A stretch of 9,595 nt of DNA, taken from positions 1-9,595 of IMG/VR virus record IMGVR_UViG_2541047688_000006, one strand, 5' to 3'. Source of the DNA: a virus (lineage: Duplodnaviria; Heunggongvirae; Uroviricota; Caudoviricetes). The position numbers and the translations under genes were made by a program. This document shows, piece by piece, positions 1 through 9,595 of this stretch (its first letter is position 1; every line of letters starts with the position of its first letter). The notes beneath the pieces are model-generated. The model saw only the letters and a list, made by a program, of their open reading frames with translations, was not told where the DNA came from and ran no database searches.

Positions 1-249
1 ATGCGTATTGAAATCTGCATAGCCAAAGAAAAAATGACTAAAATGCCAACCGGTGCTGTGGATGCGTTAAAGGAAGAATTAACCCGACGCATCAGTAAAC
101 GTTATGACGATGTAGAGGTGATCGTAAAAGCTACCAGCAACGATGGCCTTTCTGTTACGCGCACCGCCGATAAAGATTCAGCTAAAACTTTTGTTCAGGA
201 AACTCTGAAAGATACCTGGGAGTCTGCTGACGAGTGGTTTGTTCACTAA
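1..249 (+). CDS. dinI: DinI-family protein (DNA damage-inducible protein I-like), 82 aa
   Basis: ORF begins at ATG at position 1 (its RBS would lie off-window). The translation MRIEICIAK...[16 protein letters not shown] matches the recalled E. coli DinI pattern (MRIEVTIAK ... LQETWESADDWFV) in both length and termini. dinI-like genes are common prophage cargo. Confidence 0.8.
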
Positions 250-317
250 TTAGCACGTAAAATCTGTAACGGCTGGAAATCATTCAATACTCGCACTATC
301 GAAAGTTCACCATCCAA

Positions 318-357
318 CCGCAGCACGTTCTTGCTTAAGGCGTGTCTGCGGTTTTTC
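318..357 (+). terminator. Putative rho-independent terminator downstream of the dinI-like gene
   Basis: CCGCAGCACG (318-327) pairs with CGTGTCTGCGG (341-351) with one bulge around a 13-nt loop, followed by TTTTT (352-356). It lies ~70 nt after the dinI-like stop. Confidence 0.45.
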
Positions 358-675
358 AACTATTCAGATACATCACTCCCATCACATTCATTCCTCCGCA
401 TCAAAGGCATATAGGCTATATCACCTTGATATTTTTCTTCTTCAGATAAAAACTGTTATCTATGTATACTTTTAAACCCAATCCGTGTAGAGTCTCTGCA
501 TAAGATAGTTTGCAGTTGCCACTTCAGCTTGCGCCATAAACCGCCTGATTTTTGCCGCCATCTGTTAGCATTCCTGTATACCTGAAACGACAATGTTTAT
601 CTACGAACTTTAAGAACACCCAGGATAAAAATTGTCAACTATATCATATATAACACATTACTAATTCGAGGCTAT

Positions 676-789
676 ATGAACAGCATACTGATAATCACTT
701 CGCTCCTTATCATATTCAGCATTTTTAGTCATGCTCTAATAAAATTAGGGATTGGCATATCCAATAACCCAGACAAAACCGATGTATAA
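676..789 (+). CDS. Possible small hydrophobic peptide (37 aa), hypothetical
   Basis: ATG at 676 preceded by GAGG (668-671); translation [37 protein letters not shown], stop TAA 787-789. It has one predicted TM-like hydrophobic stretch plus a polar tail. It sits in an AT-rich region where Ile/Leu/Phe codons are enriched by composition, so it could be a chance ORF. Confidence 0.25.
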
Positions 790-857
790 GTCAACATATC
801 CTGAATCAGACATACAATATCGCAATGAAAATCAATAATATTTTAAGGAATATATTC

Positions 858-1091
858 ATGAAATCAAAAGACACCCTAAAGTGGTTCCCTGCGCAGCTTC
901 CTGAAGTCAGAATTATCCTAGGGGATGCTGTAGTGGAAGTAGCAAAACAGGGAAGACCTATCAATACCAGAACATTGCTTGATTACATTGAAGGAAACAT
1001 AAAGAAAAAATCATGGCTGGATAACAAAGAATTATTACAAACAGCGATATCAGTTCTTAAAGACAACCAAAATTTAAATGGTAAAATGTAA
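858..1091 (+). CDS. Hypothetical protein, 77 aa (alternative upstream ATG at 825 gives 88 aa)
   Basis: ORF track 825..1091. The ATG at 858 has a good SD (AAGGA at 845-849, ~8-nt spacer) whereas the ATG at 825 has none. Translation MKSKDTLKWFPAQLPEVRIILGDAVVEVAKQGRPINTRTLLDYIEGNIKKKSWLDNKELLQTAISVLKDNQNLNGKM; no family recognised. Low GC, typical of a horizontally acquired moron gene. Confidence 0.5.
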   Translation: MKSKDTLKWFPAQLPEVRIILGDAVVEVAKQGRPINTRTLLDYIEGNIKKKSWLDNKELLQTAISVLKDNQNLNGKM

Positions 1092-1407
1092 TATAATAAA
1101 CTTACTTTTTTATCATTTTTCCACTTTAACAACATTTTGCTCCACTTTTCCACGACCAAACAACTTGAAATCTGGTTAAAATAACACGCAACACTATTCT
1201 TCTTCCTTGAGTCCGCCCGGAACTCGAAAAACAAACCGAGTTAAAGCCATTTTTCACAAAATCGATTTTGGGTCTCACCAAAATTACGGGGTTGCATACG
1301 CATTCGTTTATTTTCGAACGTGTACATACAAACATGCACAAAAATAATCAAAATTATTTTCTGAGATGCATTATGATATGAACACCAATTTCGTATAGAG
1401 TCTCACT

Positions 1408-1998
1408 ATGTCTCGAATTTTTGCTTACTGTCGGATATCAACGCTGGATCAGACCACCGAAAATCAACGCCGGGAAATCGAAAGTGCAGGTTTTAAAATC
1501 AAACCTCAGCAAATAATCGAAGAACACATTAGCGGCTCAGCAGCAACCAGTGAGCGTCCTGGTTTTAACCGGTTGCTTGCTCGCCTGAAATGTGGTGATC
1601 AATTGATTGTGACAAAACTGGATCGCCTTGGTTGTAATGCAATGGATATCAGGAAAACAGTGGAACAACTGACCGAAACAGGTATCAGAGTGCATTGCTT
1701 AGCATTGGGGGGCATTGACCTGACCAGTCCAACAGGAAAAATGATGATGCAAGTAATTTCAGCAGTCGCTGAATTTGAACGAGACCTTTTACTTGAACGC
1801 ACTCATTCCGGGATAGTAAGAGCCCGGGGCGCAGGGAAACGTTTTGGTCGACCACCTGTGTTAAATGAAGAACAGAAACAGGTGGTATTCGAACGGATTA
1901 AGTCAGGTGTAAGTATAAGTGCCATTGCCCGGGAATTCAAAACCTCGCGGCAAACCATTTTAAGAGCCAAAGCAAAACTTCAGACACCTGACATATAA
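1408..1998 (+). CDS. Serine recombinase (resolvase / DNA-invertase family), 196 aa
   Basis: N-terminal catalytic motif [11 protein letters not shown] (Ser11 as the presumptive nucleophile, compare Y-x-R-V-S-T-x-x-Q in Hin/Gin/gamma-delta resolvase). KLDRLGCN matches the KLDRLGRS motif except for Cys76. Central ...[14 protein letters not shown]... and GRFGRPP motifs and a C-terminal HTH ([18 protein letters not shown]) are present. It is convergent with the tail-fibre operon, as pin is in K-12 cryptic prophages. Confidence 0.85.
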
Positions 1999-2095
1999 AA
2001 AATAATCTCGGTGTGAGATGCCTTACGTCTTCCAAGCCCCCTTCCTTGCCGTAAATGGAAAGATACATCTAATTATAGAATTTATATGTTTTACC

Positions 2096-2215
2096 CTACG
2101 GCAGTGCTGGCCATTCAATATCCTGTGCAGTTGACGTATCAACACGGTTCAGCAACACCCGATACTTCTTCCAGGCTTCCCGCAACGAGGTTTCTTCCTC
2201 CGTTGCATATACAGC
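2096..2215 (-). pseudogene. tfa: Remnant of the 3' end of a lambda-type tail fibre assembly gene (tfa), about 35-39 codons with no start
   Basis: Minus-strand translation of 2215..2099 gives [39 protein letters not shown], matching the recalled C-terminus of lambda Tfa (...[39 protein letters not shown]). An in-frame stop lies immediately upstream at 2216-2218 and there is no start codon or N-terminal Tfa sequence. Confidence 0.7.
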
Positions 2216-2225
2216 TCACCTTTTT

Positions 2226-2519
2226 TCACCCACGATTAACCAACAGCCAGACCAGCAGACACGCCACCACCGGCACAGCAAAATCCATCAGGCTTGCCAC
2301 ATCCCACGCACGCGGATCAAAACCGCCCCACCACGGCATATTCATTCGCTTGCCATGCCCGAACATTTCAATCCAGCGATATTCTGCCTGGGTATGTTCA
2401 CGCGCAATGAAGAACGTACAACCAGCTATCGCCCCGTAAGCCCAGTTTCCGGTAAAAAGACCAACCAGTACCTGCGCAGCCACAGCACAAAGTGCATGAA
2501 GGAAAGGTGTTATATCCAT
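2226..2519 (-). CDS. Small integral membrane protein, 97 aa, hypothetical
   Basis: ATG at 2519 preceded by a strong SD AGGAGG (4-nt spacer) directly after the stop of the upstream gene. Two long hydrophobic segments (about residues 5-37 and 75-94) flank a Trp/Arg-rich loop (REHTQAEYRWIEMFGHGKRMNMPWWGGFDPRAWD). No family recognised. Confidence 0.6.
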   Translation of the reverse strand: MDITPFLHALCAVAAQVLVGLFTGNWAYGAIAGCTFFIAREHTQAEYRWIEMFGHGKRMNMPWWGGFDPRAWDVASLMDFAVPVVACLLVWLLVNRG

Positions 2520-2529
2520 TACGCCTCCT

Positions 2530-3234
2530 TTATCCGATATCGCTTCGGGAAACGGATAACAACTTTAATTCTGACTCAAGTTCATCAACTCTTTCAGTCA
2601 GCTTCTGGATATGGTGAATCAGTGGAACAACCAGACGTTCGTACATTACACCTTCGGCAACAAGGCCATTGCTGGAAATGGTTTCCGGTGCATCATCTTC
2701 GTTGGCTGGTCGCCAGTGAACAAACTGAGGGGCAATTTCTCCTACTTCCTCGGCAATCAATCCATAGAATCCCCAGTCACGCCTGTCATTTTCGCATTGC
2801 GACCTGTACCACACATGGCGCATCCTGAAAATGAGATCGGCGTGCTCTGAATCTATCGTCTCTACTGAATGTTTATAGCGGATAGACGATGTTGACCGCA
2901 GCACAGACGAAATTGCAGGGTCAGGATTAAGATAAAGATTTGCCGCCGCTGTAGTTGTGCCCAATCCCCATAAATAAAACGCTTCACGGACAGTCAGCGG
3001 GTAAAAATCTCCGCCATAACGACCACTTTCCAGATCGTTCACTTCCACTTTGTTTTTCAGCTTATTATCCACTTCTGTTTTTGTGTATCTGGTACTGATA
3101 TCCTGCTTTGCACTGTCCATATCAGTCTGAAGCGTTGATACTTTTACGTTAATTGAGGAAATATCTTCCTTTGCCTTACTGACATCTCCCTTTAGCGTTT
3201 TGATGTCATCAGGAATTACTGTCGATGTAGCCAT
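2530..3234 (-). CDS. Tail-fibre-like protein with C-terminal S74-type intramolecular chaperone (self-cleaving) domain, 234 aa
   Basis: ATG at 3234 with SD GAGGAAG overlapping the upstream stop. The N-terminal ~70 aa are coiled-coil-like (K/D/S-rich heptads). Residues ~116-225 (SSIRYKHSVETIDSEHADLIFRMRHVWYR...DWGFYGLIAEEVGEIAPQFV...NGLVAEGVMYERLVVPLIHHIQKLTERVDELESELK) follow the recalled Peptidase_S74 / endosialidase-chaperone pattern (SDxRxK...v.Y.w...GfIAQEV.E.lPelV...L.vdY..LvplLieaiKeL), including a Ser116...Lys121 dyad candidate. Confidence 0.65.
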   Translation of the reverse strand: MATSTVIPDDIKTLKGDVSKAKEDISSINVKVSTLQTDMDSAKQDISTRYTKTEVDNKLKNKVEVNDLESGRYGGDFYPLTVREAFYLWGLGTTTAAANLYLNPDPAISSVLRSTSSIRYKHSVETIDSEHADLIFRMRHVWYRSQCENDRRDWGFYGLIAEEVGEIAPQFVHWRPANEDDAPETISSNGLVAEGVMYERLVVPLIHHIQKLTERVDELESELKLLSVSRSDIG

Positions 3235-3243
3235 TTTTCTTCC

Positions 3244-3525
3244 TCACATCCAGCTACGGAGTTGATGCTCAACAGCAACCGCGTGTTCATCGAATAATGA
3301 CGATATTTGCGAATCATTAATGATGCGCACATTTACAAAATATCCGTCCTCCTTAACACATACCGGCTCGCCATCTTCAGTAAGTTCTCCGGTTTCTTTG
3401 TACACATTACCTATCACGTCAATAAGAATATCATCCTGCATCGACTCGTCATCATAATAGCCAATGCTCTCCATAAAGGCCGAAAAGTCGGCCCTGTCTG
3501 CAAATTTGAGTGTTAAATCTTTCAT
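3244..3525 (-). CDS. Small highly acidic protein, 93 aa, translationally coupled to stf; hypothetical (possible fibre chaperone/accessory)
   Basis: Its ATG (3525-3523) overlaps the stf stop TGA (3524-3522) as ATGA. The translation has 21 Asp+Glu against 7 Lys+Arg. Coding-like composition; no family recognised. Confidence 0.6.
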   Translation of the reverse strand: MKDLTLKFADRADFSAFMESIGYYDDESMQDDILIDVIGNVYKETGELTEDGEPVCVKEDGYFVNVRIINDSQISSLFDEHAVAVEHQLRSWM

Positions 3526-5918
3526 TTAATACTCTCCCCCATTTGCGCATCAGTTAATTCTTTATGCCAGAGACGAAGATTTCTCAAATGGCCGAATAGA
3601 TGACGAGTTCCCGATGTGGCTTGACCTCCAATTCGAATAAAGGTCCGTGTTTTTACGCCCGTCCACTCCGTTTTCATAGTTTTAGTAGCCTCACCGTTAG
3701 AAACTACTCGTTTAGTACCATCAGAATAAATATTAAAACCACCAATGAATTTTCGAACATCAGCTCGACCAGCAAACACACTAGAAACGTAAGTACTTGT
3801 CGACGCTTTATAAGTTTGCATATAAAGCTGACCGTAATATTTCTCAGTTGTGTTAAAAGCGTATGTAATTGACTCAATAGGTGGCACACCAGAAAAATCA
3901 AAAATACGCGGTGCTACATTAGGAGGAATATCGCCCCAATTTCTATTAACCTCGACAAGACACGTAAGCGGTCTATTATAGATATTATTTTCAGTTGGGA
4001 TCGTCACCATATCACTGGAGCGGGTTGCGGGTGCAGTTGTCGTAATAACAAAAGATGAAGCACATCCGCCGTTTTCAAATTGTGGTGTTGCAAGGTAAAT
4101 ATAATCTCCCGCTTCAGTTATACCACCTTTTTTCGGCGCATACTGAATCATTGCGCCAATTAAGGTTTCACCTTCAACAGCTTCTATAGTTGCCTCATAG
4201 AAAATCCACCCTGTAACCGGATCTTTAGTTGCAGTAGCTGCTATTCTATTGGCTGCCCCGCCAGTTTTTTCTATTATCAGAGTTCCGAAAGTTAAATAAG
4301 CATCTCCTAAAAATGTATAAACCGACCCATCGTATTTTTCAAAACGCAAACGACAACGAAGACCATCAGGAGCTTTAACCCTGCATGAAACAGTGCAATA
4401 CTTATTATCGCCACTAACATCAATCCCCCGGGATGCACTGCATGTATGCAGACTAAGTGCAGATGATTGTCCTGTCATATTATCTTTTGTTCGCATTTTG
4501 GCATATGAAAAACCAAATTCATCAACACCATTATTAGTTTTATCGATATTGCTGGTACTCGTCCATTCAGCGGGAGTATTGGATTTAACAAAATAGTTAG
4601 TGCGCTGTCCTTCAATCAATAAACCTTCTTTTTCAAATCGTGGCTCATCAATTTTAGCAACACTAAATACGCCTGATTTATTGATATATGTGGCAGTTGA
4701 TGCGCGTTTAAACTTAACAACCTTGTCGCCAGGCATCGTTATTTCATCATCACCAATAACAATTTTTTTATATGACGGCGAAAAGCCCGTAATCATATCC
4801 AGTGAATCGTTAAACGGTATCCACACATCAGGCAGTGGCTGTAAGACATATTTATACGGCTCTGCTGCCTGACTTGCATACTCTCTGGCTGCGTCTTCAC
4901 TTGCTTTAGCTGCTGTCTGGCTTGCTGCCGATGCTTTCGCCGAGTTCGCCGCTGCAGTCTCGCTTGTCTTTGCATTGGTTTCACTGGTTTTTGCTGCTTT
5001 TTGACTGTTGGCTGATGCAGTGGCAGAAGCAGCCGCCGCGCTTGCAGAACCAGCTGCAGCACTCTCGCTTTGGGCTGCTGCATCCTGACTGTTTTTCGCC
5101 GCAGTTTCGCTGGCTTTGGCATTCGTTTCGCTGGTCTTCGCTGCCGTCTGGCTGGACTTTGCGTTAGTTTCACTCGTCTTCGCAGCTTTCTGGCTGTTAG
5201 CCGCAGCAGTTGCTGATCCAGCTGCTGAAGTCGCAGAACCGGCTGCCGCGCTCTCGCTTTGGGCTGCTGCAACCTGGCTGTTTTTTGCCGCAGTTTCACT
5301 GGCTTTGGCATTCGTTTCGCTGGTTTTCGCTGCCGTCTGGCTGGACTTTGCGTTGGTTTCGCTCGTCTTTGCGGCTGTCTCGCTATTTTTCGCGTTGGTT
5401 TCTGATTTTTTGGCTGCTGTCGCGGAGTTTGCCGATGCAGTCTTTGAGGTCGCTGCCGCCTGTGCACTATTAGCTGCATTCGTTTCTGAGGTTTTCGCCG
5501 CGTTCTTCGATGATGCCGCTGCAGTTTCGGATTTCTTTGCCGCCGCTGCGCTCTGAGAGGCGGCTTCGGCGTTGCGTACCACTTCTTCCACCATTGCCTC
5601 AAAACGACGCAATGCCTCCGGCATGACATCATCTTCCGTCATGGCACCGAGAAAATCATTCAGCGTACCTGATCTGGAACCTTCATAGACGGTAATGGTC
5701 CCGGCATGTGAAGGCGGAAAACCTTCAACCAGCAGGGTGACGCTGTACTGACCATGCTCAACATCCATGCTGTAACGTCCGGCTTCATCCGGATTTTCAG
5801 AGGCCACCGTGTTCACCACCACCGTGCTGCTGGTTCGTCTGGCCTTCAGCACAATGGTGCAGTTCTGTACTGGTTTTCCTGTGCCATCTTTAAGCACGCC
5901 AGAAATTTTTACTGTCAT
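3522..5918 (-). CDS. stf: Side tail fibre protein (Stf), 798 aa, mosaic: lambda-like N-terminus, Ala-rich repeat shaft, non-lambda C-terminal jelly-roll-like tip
   Basis: The N-terminus MTVKISGVLKDGTGKPVQNCTI...GFPPSHAGTITVYE...TLNDFL matches recalled lambda Stf (MAVKISGVLKDGTGKPVQNCTIQLKA...). An Ala/Ser/Thr/Lys-rich repeat follows. The C-terminal ~460 aa are unlike lambda and end in ...IGGQATSGTRHLFGHLRNLRLWHKELTDAQ, resembling the C-terminal signature of concanavalin-A-like / LamG lectin folds. GC drops by eye near ~4870. Confidence 0.9.
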   Translation of the reverse strand: MTVKISGVLKDGTGKPVQNCTIVLKARRTSSTVVVNTVASENPDEAGRYSMDVEHGQYSVTLLVEGFPPSHAGTITVYEGSRSGTLNDFLGAMTEDDVMPEALRRFEAMVEEVVRNAEAASQSAAAAKKSETAAASSKNAAKTSETNAANSAQAAATSKTASANSATAAKKSETNAKNSETAAKTSETNAKSSQTAAKTSETNAKASETAAKNSQVAAAQSESAAAGSATSAAGSATAAANSQKAAKTSETNAKSSQTAAKTSETNAKASETAAKNSQDAAAQSESAAAGSASAAAASATASANSQKAAKTSETNAKTSETAAANSAKASAASQTAAKASEDAAREYASQAAEPYKYVLQPLPDVWIPFNDSLDMITGFSPSYKKIVIGDDEITMPGDKVVKFKRASTATYINKSGVFSVAKIDEPRFEKEGLLIEGQRTNYFVKSNTPAEWTSTSNIDKTNNGVDEFGFSYAKMRTKDNMTGQSSALSLHTCSASRGIDVSGDNKYCTVSCRVKAPDGLRCRLRFEKYDGSVYTFLGDAYLTFGTLIIEKTGGAANRIAATATKDPVTGWIFYEATIEAVEGETLIGAMIQYAPKKGGITEAGDYIYLATPQFENGGCASSFVITTTAPATRSSDMVTIPTENNIYNRPLTCLVEVNRNWGDIPPNVAPRIFDFSGVPPIESITYAFNTTEKYYGQLYMQTYKASTSTYVSSVFAGRADVRKFIGGFNIYSDGTKRVVSNGEATKTMKTEWTGVKTRTFIRIGGQATSGTRHLFGHLRNLRLWHKELTDAQMGESIK
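4928..5567 (-). repeat. In-frame tandem repeat inside stf, period 189 bp (63 aa), about 3 copies of decreasing identity
   Basis: 5101-5289 and 5290-5478 begin with near-identical ~80 nt (gcagtttcRctggctttggcattcgtttcgctggtYttcgctgccgtctggctggactttgcgtt); a further diverged copy spans ~4912-5100. At protein level the unit AAKTSETNAKSSQTAAKTSETNAKASETAAKNSQ.AAAQSESAAAGSA... repeats. It also creates the spurious long ORFs on other frames. Confidence 0.8.
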
Positions 5919-5931
5919 ACTTTTCCACCAA

Positions 5932-5966
5932 TAAAAAAAGCCCGCAGCAGTGACGCCACGGGCTTC
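5932..5966 (-). terminator. Putative rho-independent terminator between lom and stf (minus strand)
   Basis: On the minus strand, AAGCCCG (5965-5959) pairs with CGGGCTT (5944-5938) around a 14-nt loop, followed by a U-run (plus-strand A7 at 5933-5939). It lies immediately upstream of the stf RBS. Confidence 0.45.
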
Positions 5967-6069
5967 AGGACAGTGTAACTTTACGTTTCCTCAAACGCAG
6001 TTCACCCCATAAGGTGGATGAACCTGCGTATCATAACAATATTTACAGAAGATAAATCGGCGTCTGTTG

Positions 6070-6669
6070 TCAGAAACGGTATCCGATACCAACAATAAAT
6101 GCATCCGTTCGCCAGTCGCCACTACCGGAACCTTCATAAGCAAGGTCAATGGTCACGGATTCGGTCGGATTAAACTGCACGCCAGCCCCCCACGCCAGAG
6201 ACGTGTTGCTGTGGCGACCGTCATCACTTCCGGTCAGCACATCGTGCGTTTTCCCCTTGTTGTCAGTTACGCGGAGATAATCCCCGGAGAAAGTCGACAC
6301 ACGGCTGTAAGCCACACCCACCATCGCATACGCGCTGAACCATTCATTCACGCGTACAGACGGCCCCGCCATCACGCTGAACCAGCGGTTACGCACGGAA
6401 TCTTCATGCCAGCGGGTATCGCTGTAGCGCGTTTTTTGCTCATCCTCAGCATTGGCATAACTGAAGGACGTAATCAGCCCCAGCGCGTCCGTAAACTCAT
6501 AACGGTATTTCACGTTAATCCCGTTCAGATCATCACTACCGGGAACGTTCGTCGAGGCATGGAGATACCCCGCGCTCAGCGTGGACTGATGTTCTGCTGC
6601 ACTCGCTGGCGTAGCAGCGGCGACCTGCCAGACTACTGCGGACAAAATAACAGCACATAATTTACGCAT
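6070..6669 (-). CDS. lom: Lom outer membrane protein (Ail/Lom/PagC/OmpX family 8-strand beta-barrel), 199 aa
   Basis: ATG at 6669 with SD GAGAGG. Signal peptide MRKLCAVILSAVVWQVAAATPASA. The body (HQSTLSAGYLHA...NGINVKYRYEFTD...RYSDTRWHEDSVRNRWFSVMAGPSVRVNEWFSAYAM...GIGYRF) closely matches recalled lambda Lom. Confidence 0.9.
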   Translation of the reverse strand: MRKLCAVILSAVVWQVAAATPASAAEHQSTLSAGYLHASTNVPGSDDLNGINVKYRYEFTDALGLITSFSYANAEDEQKTRYSDTRWHEDSVRNRWFSVMAGPSVRVNEWFSAYAMVGVAYSRVSTFSGDYLRVTDNKGKTHDVLTGSDDGRHSNTSLAWGAGVQFNPTESVTIDLAYEGSGSGDWRTDAFIVGIGYRF

Positions 6670-6692
6670 AATTACCTCTCGCTTTTCTGCAA

Positions 6693-6718
6693 TAAAAAAG
6701 GCGCCATTTCTGGCGCCC
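6693..6718 (-). terminator. Putative rho-independent terminator between J and lom (minus strand)
   Basis: Perfect 7-bp stem GGCGCCA (6700-6706) / TGGCGCC (6711-6717) with a 4-nt loop, followed on the minus strand by UUUUUU (plus-strand A6 at 6694-6699). It lies ~25 nt upstream of the lom SD. Confidence 0.55.
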
Positions 6719-6736
6719 GTATCTGGGTTATAAAAT

Positions 6737-9595
6737 TCAGCTAATCGTGATGCCTGCAGTGGCTTTCTTCATCACAACAACCAGCAAATCGCTGATACTT
6801 GCTGTGGGATACCAGCCATTTACCCACCATGCTGATACAGAAAACTCCAGCGTCATGTCGCCGCGACCAGCAGGCATATCAATAACACCACTGTAAACCA
6901 GCGTATTATCCATCGCGGTACGGTTATAAATTTCAGCACCGTTTTTCTTCACTATCAGGCGGCATGACGAATAAGTATCGCTGTTCTCCCGCTCATGTCT
7001 GGCACCGCTGAAAGCCACCGCCGGAATAACAATCTGCCGGTTAAACGGCTGATCGTCATAAACCCTGACGGTAATGGTTCCTGATGGCCAACGCTTCGGT
7101 GCACGGGAGTCACGAGGGAAAGCCTTACCCACTGTTTTAACGAGATCGCCTTCAATCTGGTTTGCAGACAGTTTCCCTCTGATGACACAGTTCTTGTTAA
7201 TGGTGACATTATTGAGCGTGCCGGTATTCGCCGTGATGGCTCCACTGATATCCGCATTGCGGGCTGTCAGCCTGCCATCCGGCGTCAGGGAAAACGTCGG
7301 AGGATTGCCGGATGACGTGATGCTCACCGCAAACAGTCGCTTCAGGAACACGTCGTTCATGAACAGCTGATTCCCCTGCGCCACAAACAGCGGCGTGGTG
7401 TTGCCGTTCTCCGGGGTAATCATCGCAATGCGATCGGCCTGCAGCAGAATGTTACTCAGGGTCTGACCATCAACATCCTCAATCCCCGCACCAATCCCGG
7501 CCACATAGGGAATACCGTTTTTTGTTTTCTGCACCTTCAGCATATACATGGCATTCAGCTCATTGCGCGTGTCTGACTGAACCCGCTGGATTTGCTGTAT
7601 GGTCACGGCCTGGTCACCCAGCTTTTTATCCGTGGTCGAGGTAATTTCACTCCCTTTTTTATCCACGTACTGGCGGACCTGTGCTATCTGTCGGGCGTTT
7701 TCTGACTGCCCCTGGCTGACAGTCTGTGAGATTTCACTGCTCACCCGGTCCACTTTCTGGCTCACCTGCGCGATGGCCAGTGTCTGATCCTCATTCTTTT
7801 TCGCAACCAGCTGCGTGAGGCTGTTTTCCGCCTTCCCGATTTTCCGGGTCACTTCTGCGATATCCGTGTCCATCCGCTGACGGATATCTTCTTCCAGTTG
7901 CGTGACCTCCGTACGCAGCGCTGAAGCATCAATGCGCTCTTTCAGTGCCTGACCCAGAAGCGTCTCATCTATCAGCCCCCGGAAAATTTCCAGATACCCT
8001 TCACCATCATTGCTGGGCTGCCCGCTGGCTTCCACAAAAGCAGATTTTCCCACCAGGTTGACGCTTCGCACGTAAAACCAGAAATCCGTCCCCGGCTTAA
8101 TCCGGCTCCCCTGGACAGTCCACTGACTGCCGGTCCCCAGATAACGGGCAGATTTTTCCACCTGTGCTGTGTTCGTGATGCGTTTTTCTGAGAACCAGAA
8201 TTCAAACTGTACCGTCGGGTCATACACCGCAAGACGCGGGACCGCCGTTATCTGAAAATACCCCGGCGTCAGCTCAATGGTGGCGGGTTTTGCAGGTGCG
8301 TTAATCCGGAACGATACCGACGCCGGATCGCCCTGCTGTCCCCGGGCATTTACCGCCCGGACCGTCAGCGTGTAACGCCCCAGCGCCAGCTGCCTGAAGC
8401 GGTAAGTGGTTTCCGCCGTCCGGGCCGTGCTGACCAGCCGCTCACTGCCGTCATCCGCTGTTACGGTCAGACGGAGCAGGAAGCTCACGCCCTTCACCAC
8501 CTTCGGCGTGTCCCAGCGCGCCAGCACCTGATATTCCCCGCTGTCTGCGGTGACTTCGGCGGTCAGGTGCTGCACCGCTGGCGGCGTGACACCATTCACC
8601 GTGCCGCTCTGGTCGCCGTCAAAGTGCGCTCCGTTATCCACGATGGCCTCTTTTTCCGGTACATGCTGCACGGCGGTGATGGCATACGCACCGTCATCGT
8701 TCTCCCGGATACTCACACAGCGGAACAGGCGCTGGCGCAGCGTCGGCAGCTTCAGCCCCCACACGCTGTATTCGGCAACGCCGTCAGGAATACGGCTCAC
8801 TTTCACCTTCACGCCGTCGGTGACGGACTGGACCTCCACGCTGACCGGATTCCCACTTCCGTCAACCAGGCTTATCAGCGTGGTGCCGGAGGATGGCAGC
8901 GTGATTTCACGGTCGAGCGTCAGTGTCCGCGTCTGGCTGTTCACCGCCAGCACGCGCCCGCCGATGCTGATACCCGCATAGTCATCATCACAGATTTCAA
9001 TGACATCGCCCGGTACATGGCGAAGCCCTTCTGCACCCACGCTGAAGTCCACGGTCTGCGTTTCCAGCAGCTCCGTTTTAATCAGCCACAGCCCGGCGCG
9101 GTGTGCCTGCCCCCGGCTGGTACAGCCAAAGGCATCCATCTTCGTGACGTTACGACCGTAACGGAGAATGGCCTGCGTGTCCTCCACAAGCTCTGTCGCC
9201 GTCTCCCAGCCGTTATTCGGGTCAATCCAGTTCACCTCAACGGCATTATGACGGTCCTTCAGGGCGCTGAAGCTGTAGCGGAACGGCGCGCCATCATCCG
9301 GCATCACCACATTACTGCGGTTATAGGTCCACACCTTATCCGATGGCCGGTCCTGCACGAACGTCAGCGTCTGCCCGTTCCATACCGGCATACAGCGCAT
9401 CGCCGAGCAGAAATCACTGAGCACATCCCACGCCTTGCGCTGCGTGGTCAGGTACGCATTACAGGTGATACGCGGTTCCGTGCCACCAAAGCCATCCGGC
9501 ACCGACTGGTCGCAATTCTGGCCGATGACATACAGCGCCCATTTATCCACATCCGCCGCACCAAGACGTTTCCCCATGCCGTAGCGCGGATGGGT
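6737..9595 (-). CDS. J: Tail tip attachment / host specificity protein J, C-terminal ~950 codons (5' partial; gene continues beyond window end)
   Basis: The frame is open from the window edge ([26 protein letters not shown]...) to the stop at 6737-6739. Size, position immediately upstream of lom, and the C-terminal ...[16 protein letters not shown] region fit a lambda J-like central tail fibre. The first in-window ATG is at 9577, but the true start is off-window. Confidence 0.9.

Follow-up and report, generated by a model that had tools for sequence, protein, structure and literature searches.

We analyzed a 9,595-nucleotide (nt) stretch of DNA (hereafter the window; IMG/VR record IMGVR_UViG_2541047688_000006, positions 1–9,595), assigned to a tailed virus of the Caudoviricetes, and in it the AT-rich island at positions 250–1407, which lies between a dinI-like gene and a gene for a serine recombinase. 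The island is already known, in that it carries the annotated genes ynfT and ydfK, which were rediscovered here and do not represent a new element. What is new is the dissection of the region into modules, the demonstration that ynfT–ydfK is the portable unit and under selection, and the prediction that YdfK folds like the small signaling 'connector' AriR/YmgB. The features of the locus are as follows.

1–249, plus strand: dinI-like gene, left flank (Pfam PF06183, DinI, E = 1.1e-19; PHROG 189, RecA filament binding protein DinI)
250–357, plus strand: shared lambdoid segment, the 3' untranslated region (UTR) of dinI ending in an intrinsic terminator (phage comparison, RNA folding)
441–470, plus strand: candidate sigma-70 promoter of ynfT–ydfK, TTCAGA-18-TATACT (consensus scan)
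471–675, plus strand: leader (5' UTR) of ynfT–ydfK, ~200 nt (sequence comparison)
676–789, plus strand: ynfT (YnaM/YnfT family), 37-residue peptide (PF23676, NF041477, identity to K-12 YnaM/YnfQ)
858–1091, plus strand: ydfK, 'cold shock protein YdfK', 77 residues (RefSeq identity, phrog_2718, PF27475 on homologues)
1076–1118, plus strand: weak AU-rich hairpin with T-runs overlapping the ydfK stop codon (−7.9 kcal/mol, z = −2.85)
1092–1407, no strand assigned: AT-rich non-coding spacer between ydfK and pin (34.2% G+C)
1321–1348, plus strand: predicted pin promoter, TGTACA-16-AATAAT (promoter scan)
1408–1998, plus strand: pin-type serine invertase, right flank (PF00239 and PF02796 (HTH_7))

The G+C content of the island is 35.8%, compared with 43.4% for dinI (1–249), 45.0% for pin (1408–1998), and 48.5% for the whole window, and the stretch of 1158 bp with the lowest G+C content begins at position 351, that is, it essentially coincides with the island. 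The first-pass annotation, made from the letters alone, is thereby confirmed in describing an AT-rich island, the minimum of the window at that length, but 'far more AT-rich' was an overstatement, since the difference from the immediate flanks is only 7–9 points. It had also correctly placed the flanking genes (DinI family and serine recombinase) and the two plus-strand open reading frames (ORFs), one of 37 residues at 676–789 and the other of 88 or 77 residues at 825 or 858–1091. The statement that the two remaining stretches lack any ORF of 60 or more residues is right for 250–675 (longest ORF, 45 residues) and wrong for 1092–1407, where a minus-strand ORF of 71 residues (1126–1341) and an overlapping one of 83 residues (983–1234) occur. 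These minus-strand ORFs are mechanical: phage 2H10, whose copy is 87% identical, does not preserve them, and no PHROG family was matched by ORFs from the non-coding parts of the island; the designation of 1092–1407 as non-coding therefore stands.

The 37-residue ORF, previously listed only as a possible peptide, is the annotated and experimentally detected YnaM/YnfT. It matched PF23676 (E = 6.5e-28; 96.2 bits, cutoff 27) and NF041477 (63.9 bits, cutoff 35), and its sequence is identical to that of K-12 YnaM/YnfQ as printed in PMC6001520 (ynfQ is an older name of ynfT). The peptide consists of a single hydrophobic helix followed by a polar tail, and its gene is preceded by a Shine-Dalgarno sequence, GAGG, at 668–671. 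YnaM/YnfQ was found by chromosomal epitope tagging by VanOrsdel et al. (PMC6001520), and tagged YnaM was more abundant than most newly found small proteins in the work of Weaver et al. (bioRxiv 511675). Together with a ratio of nonsynonymous to synonymous substitution rates (dN/dS) of 0.107 versus the Salmonella copy, the published tagging indicates that ynfT encodes a translated member of this family.

The second ORF, which had been assigned to no family, is the named and annotated ydfK. Its product is 100% identical to RefSeq YdfK and matches phrog_2718 (E = 1.8e-47), and its homologues carry the precomputed Pfam family PF27475. The real start is that of the 77-residue form at 858 and not the one at 825, because a Shine-Dalgarno sequence, AAGGA, lies at 845–849, RefSeq uses this start, and the homologues of other genera begin with MKS. 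The family is tiny; an exhaustive HMMER profile search of 1.84 billion representative proteins gave 31 matches (E ≤ 0.001) and reached no other family. The dN/dS value versus the Salmonella copy is 0.079, so that both ynfT and ydfK, at about 0.1, are under purifying selection.

A megablast search with 250–1407 matched 4975 of 5426 complete E. coli genomes (~92%), where RefSeq annotates ynfT and ydfK; at least 80% of the query was covered in 2780 of them, and the median was two places per genome. From ~310 to the start of pin, the window is nearly identical to the Qin (ynfT-ydfK-pinQ) and Rac (ynaM-ynaE-pinR) prophages of K-12, sharing both ORFs, both spacers, the gene order, and the tail-fibre neighbourhood, whereas the K-12 block borders directly on the prophage/host junction (truncated ydfJ, or ttcC) and the window has the dinI-like gene upstream. 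The whole block is also present in the sequenced phages Tritos, HannyBb, Turner, Kati, and 2H10, while HK97, mEp460, and the Shiga toxin (Stx) phages have 250–357 only. This presence or absence between conserved genes of related phages is the behavior of a phage moron, and the earlier proposal of accessory, horizontally moving prophage cargo, for which a comparison of this slot in related phages had been suggested, is borne out by it.

The pair is also found apart from pin. In Salmonella phage 118970_sal3, only the part corresponding to window positions 627–1095 is present (79% identity), with both ORFs located beside tfa and pin missing. Similarly, a Superficieibacter prophage (locus L069, 3847–4234) contains a YnaM-like ORF and a YdfK homologue between thrS and the tail-fibre genes, again with pin missing, and Pantoea eucrina (locus L019, 3805–4234) likewise has the ORF pair. 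In the latter two, divergent YnaM-like peptides (motifs LGIAISNNQD and KIASQVSNNND) directly precede YdfK homologues of 55–60% identity. Because the pair thus recurs without pin in 118970_sal3 and Superficieibacter, and occurs also in Pantoea eucrina, the portable element is the two-gene unit ynfT–ydfK, from which pin is separable.

The left module (250–357) is of wider distribution. It is the only part shared by ~200 of 212 matching phage records, including HK97, mEp460, and many Stx phages, and its counterpart in HK97 lies directly 3' of the annotated attP core and the sib/tI hairpin (HK97 locus 2951–3099). The module ends in a GC-rich hairpin (316–353) and a U-run (352–356); the folding energy of the hairpin is −20.7 kcal/mol (z = −5.0), and 0 of 200 shuffled sequences were equally stable. 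Differences among Rac, Qin, and the window fall in a loop or bulge or convert a G-C into a G-U pair. The plus-strand hairpin at 316–356 is a strong terminator for transcripts arriving from dinI, or from int/att in relatives. In comparison with the sib-tI region of lambda and HK97, window positions 254–357 are homologous to the ~100 bp that follow the HK97 sib/tI hairpin and also end in a terminator oriented against int-derived transcripts; on the other hand, the sib hairpin itself lies outside the window, dinI holds the upstream place, and retroregulation by RNase III is not implied. At the edge of the b-region, 250–357 acts as a second, conserved terminator.

The candidate promoter at 441–470 may drive ynfT–ydfK, as judged from its match to the consensus; its hexamers are invariant in 60 distinct copies, in which ~20% of the downstream leader positions vary (about p = 0.07), adding weakly to the argument. 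Among the same copies, variable positions amount to 9% in ynfT, 4% in ydfK, and ~20% in the leader and spacer. At the other end, the weak hairpin at 1076–1118 is a possible weak terminator after ydfK, although the terminator scan made no call there. As signals of an autonomous cassette there are a strong upstream terminator, a candidate promoter matching the consensus, and a possible weak downstream terminator. The ydfK/ynaE promoters of the SELEX study described below (PMC3946193) are situated in host DNA, beyond the conserved block, and hence not applicable to the window, and direct repeats (476–496/1384–1404 and 445–463/624–642) are at chance level by our estimate of about one such pair per 1.9 kb.

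Because the remaining genes of the window, all on the minus strand, are J, lom, stf, a gene for a tail-fibre protein with a C-terminal chaperone domain, and a tfa remnant, the island occupies the slot of the lambda 'b-region', between the tail-fibre genes and att/int (or dinI). The b-region morons lom and bor of lambda are similarly nonessential AT-rich cargo between the tail-fibre genes and att, present in some relatives and absent from others, bounded upstream by a terminator, and expressed from the prophage. They differ in having their own expression signals, whereas the promoter and downstream terminator of ynfT–ydfK are only predicted, and no conversion phenotype is known for the pair.

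The right module (1092–1407) is poorly conserved (75% identity to phage 2H10, with a 63-nt indel) and gave no global folding signal (z = −1.24). The hexamers of the pin promoter predicted in it are identical to those predicted for pinQ and pinR by Shimada et al., who located them in spacers bound by the RpoD holoenzyme in genomic SELEX (systematic evolution of ligands by exponential enrichment) (PMC3946193). The same in vitro method yielded H-NS sites in the ydfK-pinQ and ynaE-uspF spacers of K-12 (PMC3946193). The AT-rich island (35.8% G+C) is thus of a kind bound by H-NS in vitro, at least in its K-12 copies, as the first-pass annotation had supposed. 'Silenced', however, is too strong a word, because tagged YnaM is readily seen in ordinary cultures in lysogeny broth (LB) and ydfK responds to cold and related stresses with strong induction. 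Taken as a whole, the earlier idea of an H-NS-silenced moron holds with regard to accessory portable cargo, in vitro H-NS sites, and small leader RNAs (see below), and is not supported with regard to the family being unknown, the silencing, and a role in defence.

Induction of ydfK by cold shock and by cold-mimicking conditions (translation inhibitors, azidothymidine (AZT), long-term stationary phase) is shown in the literature. Thus, ydfK and ynaE (or ynfQ) rise together with the csp genes after AZT treatment, in a glmY glmZ mutant, and in long-term stationary phase. In uropathogenic E. coli, YdfK protein was found at 23 °C, with a drop after an upshift to 37 °C, together with BluF/BluR, and YdfK was co-captured with NudC at 16 °C and not at 37 °C. 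Like the CspA-family cold-shock genes (cspA, B, G, I), with which it is co-induced in several transcriptome studies, ydfK is preceded by a long leader; unlike them, it encodes no cold-shock domain (no Pfam match), and its leader has no cold-box match. The name 'cold shock protein' reflects induction only. In single-cell data obtained after tetracycline or chloramphenicol treatment, ydfK and pinQ mark different rare clusters, which fits separate transcription units for the two genes. Pipelines for K-12 omics data such as ribosome profiling often drop these genes, the Rac and Qin copies being near-identical; the duplicates ynaE/ydfK, ynaM/ynfT, and pinR/pinQ are all excluded in this way. Such exclusion probably explains the missing start-codon signal of YnaM and the absence of the genes from the 3'-end maps searched.

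A separate hint of a link to the cold came from other genera. At ~28 of their loci (among them Enterobacter, Klebsiella, Leclercia, Citrobacter, Pantoea, and Brenneria; for example Enterobacter sp. MGH 24, locus L030, 2208–8201), a YdfK homologue of ~62% identity lies between a divergent gene for an LpxP equivalog (535.7 bits, cutoff 517) and a convergent GH94 gene. The lipid A palmitoleoyltransferase LpxP is a classic example of a cold-induced enzyme, and the arrangement suggests a mobile cold/envelope island. These loci share a 0.9-kb AT-rich intergenic region, one copy resides on the plasmid pAPP145_3, and their proteins are 97–99% identical across genera.

The structure of YdfK predicted by AlphaFold2 from an alignment of 18 sequences consists of three helices, with a predicted local distance difference test (pLDDT) score of 80.7 and a predicted template modelling score (pTM) of 0.69. 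A Foldseek search with this model gave AriR/YmgB (2oxl_A; template modelling (TM) score, 0.81) as the best match by a clear margin, and the model displays the three-helix fold of YmgB (PDB 2OXL). By hhalign, the YdfK alignment was matched to one of AriR/YcgZ over 28–30 columns with P = 4.7e-4 (32% probability), and a more diverse YdfK alignment improved the match to P = 8.6e-5 (60% probability) with the register unchanged; the aligned YdfK segment is LPEVRIILGDAVVEVAKQGRPINTRTLL. As controls, 200 column-shuffled AriR alignments scored 9.95 on average (sd 2.08, maximum 19.7) and the reversed one 15.2, as against 28.3 for the real alignment. These results point to a fold-level resemblance, and possibly remote homology, between YdfK and AriR/YmgB, not to membership in one family. 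The identity between the two is 15%, and the hidden Markov model (HMM) of the YmgB family, PF10798, misses YdfK. No sequence-level link of YdfK to a solved structure or a Pfam family was obtained (PDB profile search; Pfam, E ≤ 10), a search of viral folds in BFVD returned nothing meaningful, and no report linking ydfK to AriR was found in the searchable literature.

AriR/YmgB is encoded in the cold- and blue-light-induced ycgZ-ymgA-ariR-ymgC operon, which neighbours BluF, annotated as temperature-regulated. In contrast, YdfK is prophage-borne, is paired with a membrane peptide, and does not belong to a BluR-controlled operon. AriR/YmgB works by direct protein binding (PMC10704370; PMC11451591), its partners being SpoT and the Rcs phosphorelay, the latter of which is activated from the cytoplasmic side (PMC11451591).

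Collectively, we estimate at roughly 60% the probability that 250–1407 represents the accessory region next to att in a Rac/Qin-type lambdoid prophage, composed of three modules, with a cold-induced ynfT–ydfK pair whose YdfK is an AriR-like adaptor. Module 1 (250–357) would be the common lambdoid segment, the terminator of which blocks transcription incoming from dinI or from int/att. Module 2 (358–1091) would be a self-contained cassette with a probable sigma-70 promoter, a leader, the single-helix membrane peptide YnfT, and the three-helix YdfK. Module 3 (1092–1407) would be an AT-rich spacer, bound by H-NS in vitro, in which the promoter of the separable pin invertase lies. Presumably, ynfT and ydfK are co-transcribed, and both the transcript and YdfK accumulate after a temperature downshift. 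YdfK would then act in the manner of AriR/YmgB, as a small adaptor that binds and retunes a larger host protein, and would be neither an enzyme nor a CspA-type RNA chaperone nor a DNA-binding repressor. Candidate targets would be the AriR partners, that is, the Rcs phosphorelay and SpoT, and also the NudC/CsdA cold RNA machinery.

A further-reaching function is put forward only tentatively, and we consider it rather doubtful as it stands: YdfK may be a phage-borne connector of the AriR/YmgB class, such that a chilled lysogen makes YdfK and YnfT, and YdfK binds a host protein of signaling or RNA metabolism, thereby reprogramming envelope and stress responses. If so, the connector would represent a temperature-triggered form of lysogenic conversion, and this envelope-directed role would also account for the recurrence of YdfK homologues beside LpxP elsewhere in the Enterobacteriaceae.

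Several observations weigh against the interpretation of the region as cold-induced cargo with an AriR-like adaptor. The PF10798 HMM matched none of the 18 YdfK homologues at E ≤ 10, while scoring AriR at 90.3 bits and YcgZ at 24.9 bits, and a sequence-profile search of the PDB with YdfK did not find 2OXL. The link to AriR consists of a model predicted from 18 sequences and a 30-column profile match of only 60% probability, and the C-terminal helix of YmgB, in which R74G abolishes SpoT binding, lies outside the profile alignment. As for regulation, H-NS binding comes from in vitro SELEX only; the leader (471–675) contains no match to a cspA-type cold box within 3 mismatches; co-transcription of ynfT and ydfK, the promoter, and the weak 3' terminator are inferences; and the genes are absent from the term-seq supplements searched (Adams 2021). 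Finally, because the LpxP-YdfK-GH94 loci are 97–99% identical across genera, the LpxP neighbourhood counts as a single mobile linkage group instead of many independent associations.

Among the alternatives, the one that fares best, though it is unlikely, is that YdfK is a helix-turn-helix (HTH) DNA-binding transcription factor regulating prophage or host promoters, as some database records label it. These labels are automatically generated predictions that lack an experimental basis. YdfK matched no HTH family of Pfam at E ≤ 10, and the structure that its model resembles most closely, by a clear margin, is AriR/YmgB and not a classical HTH regulator.

Somewhat less likely again is that the main product of the region is RNA, the leader serving as a riboswitch- or attenuator-like element or as a source of a trans-acting Hfq-dependent small RNA, with the ORFs secondary. 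Short, prematurely terminated leader RNAs of the K-12 copies of ydfK and ynaE have in fact been reported, were co-immunoprecipitated with Hfq, and were proposed to be riboswitch-like (PMC5089854; PMC4152368); they bear out the earlier suggestion that small RNAs may arise from this region. Their stop site could be a small hairpin with a U-run at ~525–556. This hairpin, however, is disrupted in 2H10, and the leader as a whole gives little indication of constraint on an RNA: its fold is no more stable than that of shuffled sequences (z = 0.11), its identity to phage 2H10 is 89.6%, so that it diverges roughly as fast as synonymous sites, the share of variable positions is ~20%, compared with 4–9% in the ORFs, and its sequence is not conserved upstream of the YdfK homologues in other genera. 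The available copies of the leader fall into about two sequence types, and the 80 IMG/VR loci all have a 100%-identical YdfK. A scan of 1–2600 with Rfam (E ≤ 1) found nothing at threshold and only two sub-threshold matches, to CssrB and to IS009. The CssrB match scored 30.8 bits (gathering score, 76), covered mainly the terminator hairpin at 316–353, and did not recur in the loci of K-12, Shigella, and 2H10 (E ≤ 0.01), and was rejected. The strong purifying selection on both ORFs also argues against the RNA as the main product.

A toxin-antitoxin or abortive-infection/defence role of the cassette, with ynfT encoding a type I toxin-like membrane peptide, is improbable. YnfT is indeed short and made up of a hydrophobic helix and a polar tail, and a long leader precedes it, as is the case for many type I toxins, and the b-region slot of prophages often holds defence cargo. 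Yet no PADLOC model of known defence proteins (E ≤ 0.01) matched YnfT, YdfK, DinI, Pin, or a 97-residue ORF downstream, and neither an antisense RNA family (Rfam) nor a convincing antisense promoter-terminator pair (scan) was found. Moreover, tagged YnaM is comparatively abundant in normally growing cells, with no toxicity reported (PMC6001520; bioRxiv 511675). The defence, anti-defence, or lysogenic-conversion role named in the first-pass annotation hence has no evidence, PADLOC having returned nothing and PHROGs giving 'unknown function'.

Decay of the island into functionless prophage DNA, with the ORFs persisting by chance, can be dismissed: the block does occur in the defective prophages Rac and Qin, beside an invertase without recognisable crossover sites and a truncated tfa, and its spacers are poorly conserved, but it is also carried by the sequenced phages listed above, both ORFs have dN/dS values of ~0.1, the pair turns up again in distant genera, detection of both proteins has been reported, and the frequent frameshifts or stop codons across genomes that decay would bring are not seen. 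The earlier caution that the 77-residue ORF might be neither conserved nor expressed, and the region a set of degraded remnants, has likewise been removed, since the ORFs proved to be conserved as well as expressed, and no remnant of a known gene turned up in the spacers.

With matching DNA in ~92% of complete E. coli genomes, often in several places, ynfT–ydfK is among the most widespread prophage cargoes of this species. The two genes also rank among those named most frequently in reports of cold induction, yet no function is known for either protein, and they remain a blind spot in part because the two near-identical K-12 copies make genome-wide studies discard them. If YdfK is an AriR-like adaptor, cryptic prophages would be connected to low-temperature physiology and envelope signaling, and a concrete and cheaply testable hypothesis would follow as to which host protein is bound in the cold.

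Concerning the origin of the window, the junction between dinI and the island is rare: at least 80% of 1–700 was covered in only 149 of the 5426 complete E. coli genomes, with a best identity of 94%, while the island without this junction reached 99%. The window therefore looks recombinant or like a member of a lineage outside this collection.

Several minor observations were made on the neighbouring genes. The Pin invertase (1408–2230 region) looks orphaned. A search of the window for gix/hix-type crossover sites (AAACCNNGGTTT, ≤2 mismatches) gave 3 matches versus 4.9 expected, and no inverted repeats flank the tail-fibre genes of the window. The segment at 2130–2228 (minus strand), which accounts for the partial Rfam match to IS009, is just the 3' remnant of a tfa gene; IS009 was rejected as an RNA element, as it is simply the 3' end of tfaQ/tfaR in K-12. 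The 97-residue hydrophobic ORF at 2226–2519 (minus strand), downstream of the tail-fibre gene with the S74 chaperone domain, has no Pfam family and corresponds to phrog_1443 (unknown function) and to a hypothetical protein in RefSeq. At 4800–5600 (minus strand), the Ala/Ser/Thr-rich repeats 'SETNAK.S.TAAK' in the N-terminal half of the Stf-like tail-fibre gene (798 residues, 3522–5918) give rise to a strongly negative AT skew (as low as −0.72).

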